DNA of 33,433 nt from Catajapyx aquilonaris (Eukaryota). The notes below the pieces were generated by a model, which did no database searches, had not been told where the DNA came from, and worked only from the letters and a program-made list of their open reading frames with translations. Of the stretch, positions 10,421-10,762 are shown in pieces. Within the stretch, counting starts at the first letter, position 1. Each line of letters starts with the position of its first letter. The position numbers and the translations under genes are program-made. The stretch covers positions 1 to 33,433 of the forward strand of contig JYFJ02004269.1 of the NCBI GenBank assembly GCA_000934665.2. The letters run 5' to 3'.

Positions 10421-10762
10421 AATGGTAAACAGTTGCAAAGTTTCCAAGATGATCGCCAACCTGAGCAGTTGTTATTTGTTGGCTACACTTCTGTTGCTGT
10501 CAGGGGTCAATCATTCCAACTTGAAAAGAGTTCGGATGATCCTAAAGGCTGCTTGCAATGATTTTGCTATACAATTATCTTTTCAAAAGATAATTTTGTA
10601 GGAAAATCTTTGCAAGCAGCCTTTATGATCATGCGAACACTTTTCAAGTTGGAATGATTGACCCCTGACAGTAACTGAAGGGTAACCAACACATAACCAC
10701 TGCTCATGTTCGCGCGGATCCTTTTGGCGATCATCTTGGAAATTTTGCAACCATTTACCATT
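10421..10762. repeat. Intronic hairpin (163/178 bp arms, centre 10584) derived partly from FREP exon 1; candidate hpRNA
   Basis: Arms are reverse complements with scattered mismatches and one 15-nt bulge; 10442-10517 matches tccaagATGatcgccaa...ctgttgctgtcaggggtcaa.cattcc of exon 1 in both copies. Confidence 0.9.

Follow-up and report, generated by a model that had tools for sequence, protein, structure and literature searches.

The DNA analysed here, a stretch of 33,433 nucleotides referred to below as the window, carries two neighbouring fibrinogen-domain (lectin-type) genes, copy 1 and copy 2, and a palindrome that lies within copy 1. The neighbours of this lectin pair are arthropod-type 7tm_7 chemoreceptors, an Srw-like GPCR and a THAP/P-transposase-like open reading frame. 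The chemoreceptor-type genes occupy 6793-7830 (below the Pfam cut-off), 19620-20717 and 21912-23027, all on the reverse strand, and the Srw/rhodopsin-like GPCR gene has two exons and lies at 16335-18266 on the forward strand. The frame at 4386-5420 (reverse strand) is open for 345 codons. Two domains are recognised in it, THAP (E = 9e-14) and an HTH domain like that of P-element transposases (E = 1e-5); the frame represents a P-type transposase, whether domesticated or in decay. Two further palindromic loci occur in the same 33 kb. At 1-2672 there is a nested foldback, possibly cut off by the window start, with arms 1-452/1933-2384 (99%), 679-1013/1347-1681 (99%) and 2109-2381/2400-2672 (97%, 18-nt spacer). 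The other, at 21136-21407, is a compound palindrome between two chemoreceptor genes, with arms 21193-21254/21287-21348 (94%) and 21136-21195/21348-21407 (93%).

Copy 1 is predicted to comprise six exons, at 9577(ATG)-9769, 9827-9872, 10165-10322, 11014-11135, 11440-11581 and 11663-12097. The model combines open frames with GT/AG sites, and the phases of all junctions are consistent. Under this model the palindrome lies in intron 3, as the preliminary description had placed it; 95 nt separate it from the donor and 248 nt from the acceptor, and the original exon 1 segment lies about 850 bp upstream. The features are as follows, each with the evidence that defines it.

9577-9769, forward strand: copy 1 exon 1 from its ATG, with the signal peptide MIAKYLLVTLLLLSGVNHS..; closest relative of the block found in the arms (gene model, alignment).
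10323-11013, forward strand: predicted copy 1 intron 3, which holds the palindrome (GT/AG sites and phases).
10418-10584, forward strand: left arm, sense relative to the host gene, centre base included (repeat search, fold, arm alignment).
10442-10518, forward strand: exon-1-like block of the left arm, from 7 nt before the ATG (10449-10451) through the signal-peptide coding part to ..GVNHS (BLAST, MAFFT).
10497-10528, no strand assigned: 32-nt perfect core, mirrored at 10640-10671 (arm alignment, short-read contigs).
10519-10650, no strand assigned: inner 66 nt of both arms and the centre, with no detectable kinship with local exons, introns or upstream regions (Smith-Waterman against shuffles).
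10585-10765, forward strand: right arm, the antisense copy, which exceeds the left arm by 15 nt owing to an indel at about 10710-10725 (repeat search, arm alignment).
10650-10741, reverse strand: exon-1-like block of the right arm, with its ATG at 10734-10732 (BLAST, MAFFT).
11663-12097, forward strand: last exon of copy 1, with Fibrinogen_C pieces in three frames and two frameshifts (profile search; DNA contigs identical).
13096-13290, forward strand: coding part of copy 2 exon 1, MIANIFSRLCLLAAILFLLSGV.., related to the arm block more distantly (BLAST, alignment).
13938-14043, forward strand: 106 nt of unrelated sequence that in copy 2 replaces the equivalent of copy 1 10350-11500 (alignment of the two copies).

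Exons 5 and 6 of copy 1 match the Pfam profile Fibrinogen_C (PF00147; E = 6.8e-18 for exon 5), and so does the last exon of copy 2 (E = 2.3e-43). The nearest database protein, from a scorpion, is 46% identical; a search with the exon 1 peptide of copy 1 gave no match at E<=1 among 123 candidates. In the last exon of copy 1, profile positions 80-109, 114-177 and 175-221 are encoded in three different frames, with a stop codon at 11770-11772 and frameshifts near 11765-11775 and 11945-11955. Since these pieces abut or overlap, there is no room for introns between them. DNA contigs covering 11713-13107 and beyond agree with the window with 0 differences, so copy 1 is probably a pseudogene.

Alignment of copy 2 with copy 1 is confined to 9466-10350 and 11500-12097. 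What is missing from copy 2 begins within intron 3 and extends through exon 4 and intron 4 into exon 5, whose 5' half is lost; the first third of the domain, profile positions 1-77, is therefore absent, and the best acceptor at the replacement site would be out of phase. From these predicted structures, both local fibrinogen-domain genes look broken. The hairpin had also been described as absent from the copy 2 intron. This is true but uninformative: as copy 2 has no equivalent of the whole region 10350-11500, the absence says nothing of when the hairpin arose.

Repeated sequence accompanies both genes. Intron 4 of copy 1 contains an 18-nt minisatellite (11145-11270, about 7 copies). In copy 2, a 21-nt tandem repeat (13407-13476, 3.3 copies) multiplies the coiled-coil exon sequence 'EEMKSLK', the copy 1 counterpart of which is a single 46-nt exon (9827-9872). 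Depth is 3-4 times the single-copy level in the bin that covers copy 1 exon 1 (9581-9761) and about 10 times that level in the bin 13201-13381, which takes in the end of copy 2 exon 1 together with intron 1 sequence; these raised depths point to further close paralogues or repeats elsewhere.

The repeat search of the window gives the palindrome an extent of 10418-10765, 348 bases, near-perfect and with sharp boundaries at both ends. It had been described as a 342-bp foldback with almost no loop; this is confirmed, with a true span 3 bases wider on each side, a spacer of 1 nt and a terminal loop of 3 nt in the folded RNA. The inner arm pair (10454-10583/10585-10714) is 130 nt long, 88% complementary and separated by the 1-nt spacer, while the outer pair (10418-10459/10724-10765) is 42 nt long and 90% complementary; the two pairs are collinear and offset by an indel. 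A global alignment of the left arm (about 166 nt) with the reverse-complemented right arm (about 181 nt) has 148 matches, 18 mismatches and one 15-nt indel, so that the arm duplex is interrupted every ~8 bp on average, in addition to a 15-nt bulge. Only three perfect runs between the arms reach at least 15 nt, with lengths of 17, 32 and 16 nt. The longest bears out the perfect core of ~32 bp seen earlier, and the 17-nt run surrounds the ATG. As RNA, 10421-10762 folds into a single hairpin of -223 kcal/mol; 100 dinucleotide shuffles of the same segment average -78.9 +/- 5.8 kcal/mol (z -24.9), with 0/100 as good. RNA folding, which had been proposed as a check, thus upholds the hairpin.

The palindrome is not an assembly artefact, and it is single-copy at >=95% identity. 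In three DNA-like runs of one sample, contigs over 10321 (or 10313)-10526, 10499-10669 and 10642-11210 match the window with 0 differences, and the second of these spans the palindrome centre. The contig breaks and overlaps fall inside the perfect core (10499-10526, 10642-10669), as expected of an assembly built on 31-letter words. A second sample (one run) matches the window with 0 differences over 10321-10440 and 10711-11022, which shows that the arms exist there too, at least in their outer parts. The runs may include the sample behind the assembly, which makes their independence incomplete. A run of no stated kind (X5) covers intronic parts at depth 2-9 and leaves 10441-10710 uncovered, a gap that is uninformative; the run was treated as DNA-like and has no bearing on expression.

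Over the hairpin, contig depth is 27.6-39, against 25-33 in unique flanks (the same three DNA runs of one sample, >=95% identity). A true repeat 500 bp downstream, the intron 4 bin 11210-11390, has a summed contig depth of 9,800-12,000 against ~30 for unique sequence, and is thus a very high-copy repeat. The adjoining bin 11391-11571, which holds most of exon 5 (11440-11581), has a depth of ~1,900-2,700, and high-depth contigs carry a G>C variant at 11499; this suggests many near-identical genomic copies of exon 5 or of adjoining repeat sequence. A BLAST search of the 33-kb window finds no further copy of the hairpin sequence besides the two exon 1s. The hairpin gave 0 matches in an index of sequence windows, a weak index in that copy 1 exon 1, despite its 3-4x depth, also gave 0, and the 32-nt core gave 0 matches among metagenome contigs.

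Part of each arm can be traced to the host gene. Likeness to exon 1 is limited to a block that starts 7 nt 5' of the ATG and stops where the signal peptide ends (BLAST, MAFFT). The left arm matches copy 1 9571-9633 at 77% over 75 nt (E = 1e-13) and copy 2 13089-13160 at 75% over 72 nt, and the right arm matches 9633-9589 at 89% over 45 nt, with a further 89% over 28 nt (all BLAST). Counted without gaps, block identity is 58/63 between the left arm and copy 1, 57/63 between the right arm and copy 1, 68/75 between the two arms, 54/63 between copy 1 and copy 2, and 61/75 and 59/78 between the arms and copy 2. The block is thus closest to the exon 1 of the very gene in which it sits, which places its origin in the host-gene lineage, at about the time when the arms separated. 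On these alignments, derivation of the block from the host gene's exon 1 is confirmed, for ~45% of each arm only. The preliminary description had seen the arms as an inverted pair of Kozak-ATG-signal-peptide copies, and this stands, with the proviso that the block makes up less than half of each arm. It had further compared the sequence at MIAN with copy 2 and the sequence further on with copy 1; the longest exact matches agree, since the one with copy 2 runs for 19 nt across ATG..AAC and the one with copy 1 for 23 nt within the hydrophobic core. Right after MIA(N/K), the block is longer than copy 1 by 12 nt in the left arm and by 27 nt in the right, and copy 2 has 15 nt more at the same place.

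The gene-derived share of each arm amounts to ~75-90 nt; the remaining ~55% matches nothing found. When the flanking parts of the arms (inner 66 nt, outer ~25 nt) are compared with the downstream parts of exon 1, introns 1-2 and the upstream regions, 20/20 query/target pairs score no better than shuffles, which reach the Smith-Waterman scores in 56 to 991 of 1000 trials. A protein alignment hinted at homology between the inner arm and the 'IENDAAENI' part of exon 1; the DNA scores, being no better than shuffles, led to its rejection.

Both arms contain ATG-initiated frames that stay open up to the palindrome centre, with 50 codons at 10449-10598 on the forward strand and 55 codons at 10570-10734 on the reverse strand. 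The 15-nt indel is a multiple of three, and substitutions between the arms are mostly amino-acid-changing. The open frames are probably a leftover of the coding origin. A protein search with the left-arm frame found no match at E<=10 among 40 candidates. The right-arm frame had 3 matches at E<=0.001 among 1.84 billion representatives, to internally repetitive proteins in 4-10 short stretches each, and these were judged spurious. Use of the left arm as an alternative first exon was also considered and rejected: the sole GT after the signal peptide (10530) leaves phase 0, and exon 4 needs phase 1.

We regard the locus, with moderate confidence, as a single-copy, repair-born inverted duplication in the intron of a decaying fibrinogen-domain (lectin-type) gene. 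Each arm is tripartite, with ~25 nt of sequence for which no source was found, a 75-90-nt copy of the host's Kozak/ATG/signal-peptide region, and 66 nt again without a source among the sequences compared. A short patch of exon 1 would have been copied into intron 3 during repair of a break. Fold-back (snap-back) priming would then have duplicated the patch together with neighbouring sequence in inverted orientation, leaving the 1-nt spacer, and the arms would since have drifted by 18 substitutions and the one 15-nt indel in the course of neutral decay. If the host pre-mRNA is made, its intron would fold into an imperfect duplex of ~160 bp; this could be cut by an arthropod Dicer-2, as a by-product and not as a demonstrated regulator.

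Fold-back priming is a source of inverted duplications, as set out in PMC10622511 and PMC7467729. The present palindrome shares with the events at DNA breaks described there a head-to-head arrangement, a minimal spacer (here 1 nt), a single locus present in one copy, and freedom from transposon hallmarks. What those two sources describe, however, are rearrangements of yeast and human chromosomes on a large scale, whereas this one is a 348-bp interstitial event; we infer its repair mechanism, from the end product only, and its neutrality. Since long palindromes almost without a spacer are usually unstable, that this one has lasted until its arms differ by ~11% could be a hint of tolerance or of selection.

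It is unlikely that the locus instead belongs to the hpRNA-type sources of endo-siRNAs. The intron or an independent transcript would then form the ~160-bp duplex, Dicer-2 would process it to ~21-nt siRNAs, and those from the right arm would silence fibrinogen-domain paralogues in trans at the start-codon/signal-peptide region. Viewed in this way, the locus has a long inverted repeat whose RNA is predicted to form an extended duplex, and this hairpin is very stable. Its arms derive in part from an exon with which the host family encodes protein; the 63-75-nt ATG/signal-peptide block in them is 90-92% identical to copy 1 exon 1, as arms homologous to a target gene should be. Over the ATG, 18 nt are shared without a difference by the two arms and the two local genes, and together with the 17-nt perfect arm run at the ATG this is what an RNAi reading would expect. 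The 3-4x depth of the exon 1 bin makes close paralogues elsewhere probable, and these are possible better targets. Pseudogene-derived hairpins as sources of siRNAs are a known theme.

Several results weigh against this reading. The right arm is the only arm antisense to the mRNAs, and no exact match of it exceeds the 18 nt found over the ATG. When its 161 21-mers are compared with the two local exon 1s, copy 1 has 0/161 perfect matches, 1 with one mismatch and 14 with two; for copy 2, 0/161 match with 0 or 1 mismatch. The 18 arm mismatches comprise 3 that would be G:U pairs in RNA from the forward strand, 4 in RNA from the reverse strand and 11 that are incompatible on both; with 3 against 4 there is no strand bias, and hence no signal of structure-preserving selection for either transcript. 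The host gene is an apparent pseudogene that may be poorly transcribed, the hairpin is intronic, its duplex is broken as described above, and the genome contains other, apparently neutral palindromes (in the window, those at 1-2672 and 21136-21407). The antisense arm had also been thought able to pair in cis with exon 1. This finds no support: in the fold of 9540-10800, both the minimum-energy and the centroid structure pair the right arm with the adjacent left arm. Judged by these comparisons, a self-targeting small-RNA function is possible, unsupported and indirectly disfavoured.

Drosophila hpRNAs provide the closest likeness in architecture. According to PMC10317233, some of them are born beside their progenitor gene, and the class is recognised by siRNAs that depend on Dicer-2, by a primary transcript whose level goes up when dcr-2 is mutated, and by full complementarity between the siRNAs and a target that becomes de-repressed. 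The earlier statement that inverted duplications of target genes are known to yield Drosophila hpRNAs is borne out by that paper as far as structure and origin are concerned: shared features are an inverted repeat from a protein-coding exon fragment, a position near the progenitor (here inside it) and a predicted long dsRNA. Unlike the Drosophila loci, the one described here has arms that are gene-derived for only ~45%, no perfect 21-mer to the local genes, an intronic position and a host that is probably a pseudogene. The same paper draws an analogy with plant MIR genes that arose by inverted duplication of their target genes. The proposed birth, from an inverted duplicate of target sequence to a foldback, is shared with these as well, but kingdom and processing machinery differ. 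Drosophila hpRNA loci are defined by molecular signatures, whereas the foldback here, in this comparison as in that with plant MIR genes, is known from sequence alone. Among the top 10 of 666 results of a full-text literature search there was no fibrinogen-related gene with such a hairpin, though one may still exist in print.

There is also little to suggest that the palindrome is a mobile element of foldback or MITE-like type which picked up a piece of a signal-peptide exon and inserted into the intron without any relation to gene regulation; we consider this improbable. With MITEs and foldback transposons the hairpin has in common that it is short, non-coding, palindromic and intronic. Its sharp ends at 10418/10765 would suit such an element, as would the 55% of each arm that is foreign to the locus and the presence in the window of other foldbacks and of the P-element-like THAP transposase frame. 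Unlike these elements, however, it has single-copy depth at >=95% identity in the three DNA runs of one sample, carries host-gene sequence in its arms, and shows no target-site duplication of >=5 nt, whichever pair of boundaries within +/-13 nt is taken (one off-boundary 4-mer occurs). No other copy lies in the window, and no look-alike appeared in the sequence index, which has little power as it missed the exon 1 paralogues too, or in the metagenome collection (0). The captured block is closest to the gene in which it sits, so that a local origin is favoured. A high-copy MITE had been named in advance as the observation that would count against a regulatory hairpin; the single-copy depth and the lack of a target-site duplication are what was found in its place.

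A canonical or mirtron-like microRNA precursor is very improbable indeed and, as far as sequence can tell, refuted: several Rfam microRNA models match with low E-values (best MIR2606, 87.7 bits, E = 1e-13), but 0/22 matches reach the gathering score (139.7 for the best), and their spread over both strands and many unrelated families, many with plant-style MIR names, is the generic behaviour of any long perfect hairpin, while the stem of ~160 bp with a 3-nt loop, 348 nt in all, contrasts with animal pre-miRNAs of ~60-80 nt with a sizeable terminal loop, and the distances of 95 nt and 248 nt from the splice sites mean that it is not a mirtron.

The repair-born inverted duplication is thus the reading in which we place most confidence, and the locus has more the look of a scar left by repair than of an established regulator. 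There is only a slim chance that it is a working hpRNA locus outside Drosophila, where the intron of a dead lectin gene yields siRNAs against the start-codon/signal-peptide block and so throttles live fibrinogen-domain (immune-lectin-type) paralogues. If siRNA processing did take place, this would be a clean non-Drosophila example of an hpRNA near its birth, with a hairpin aimed at the start codon and signal peptide, the one segment common to the lectin-family paralogues. The locus documents small inverted duplications of gene fragments in this arthropod-like genome, and it is duplications of this sort that are thought to supply the raw material of hpRNAs.
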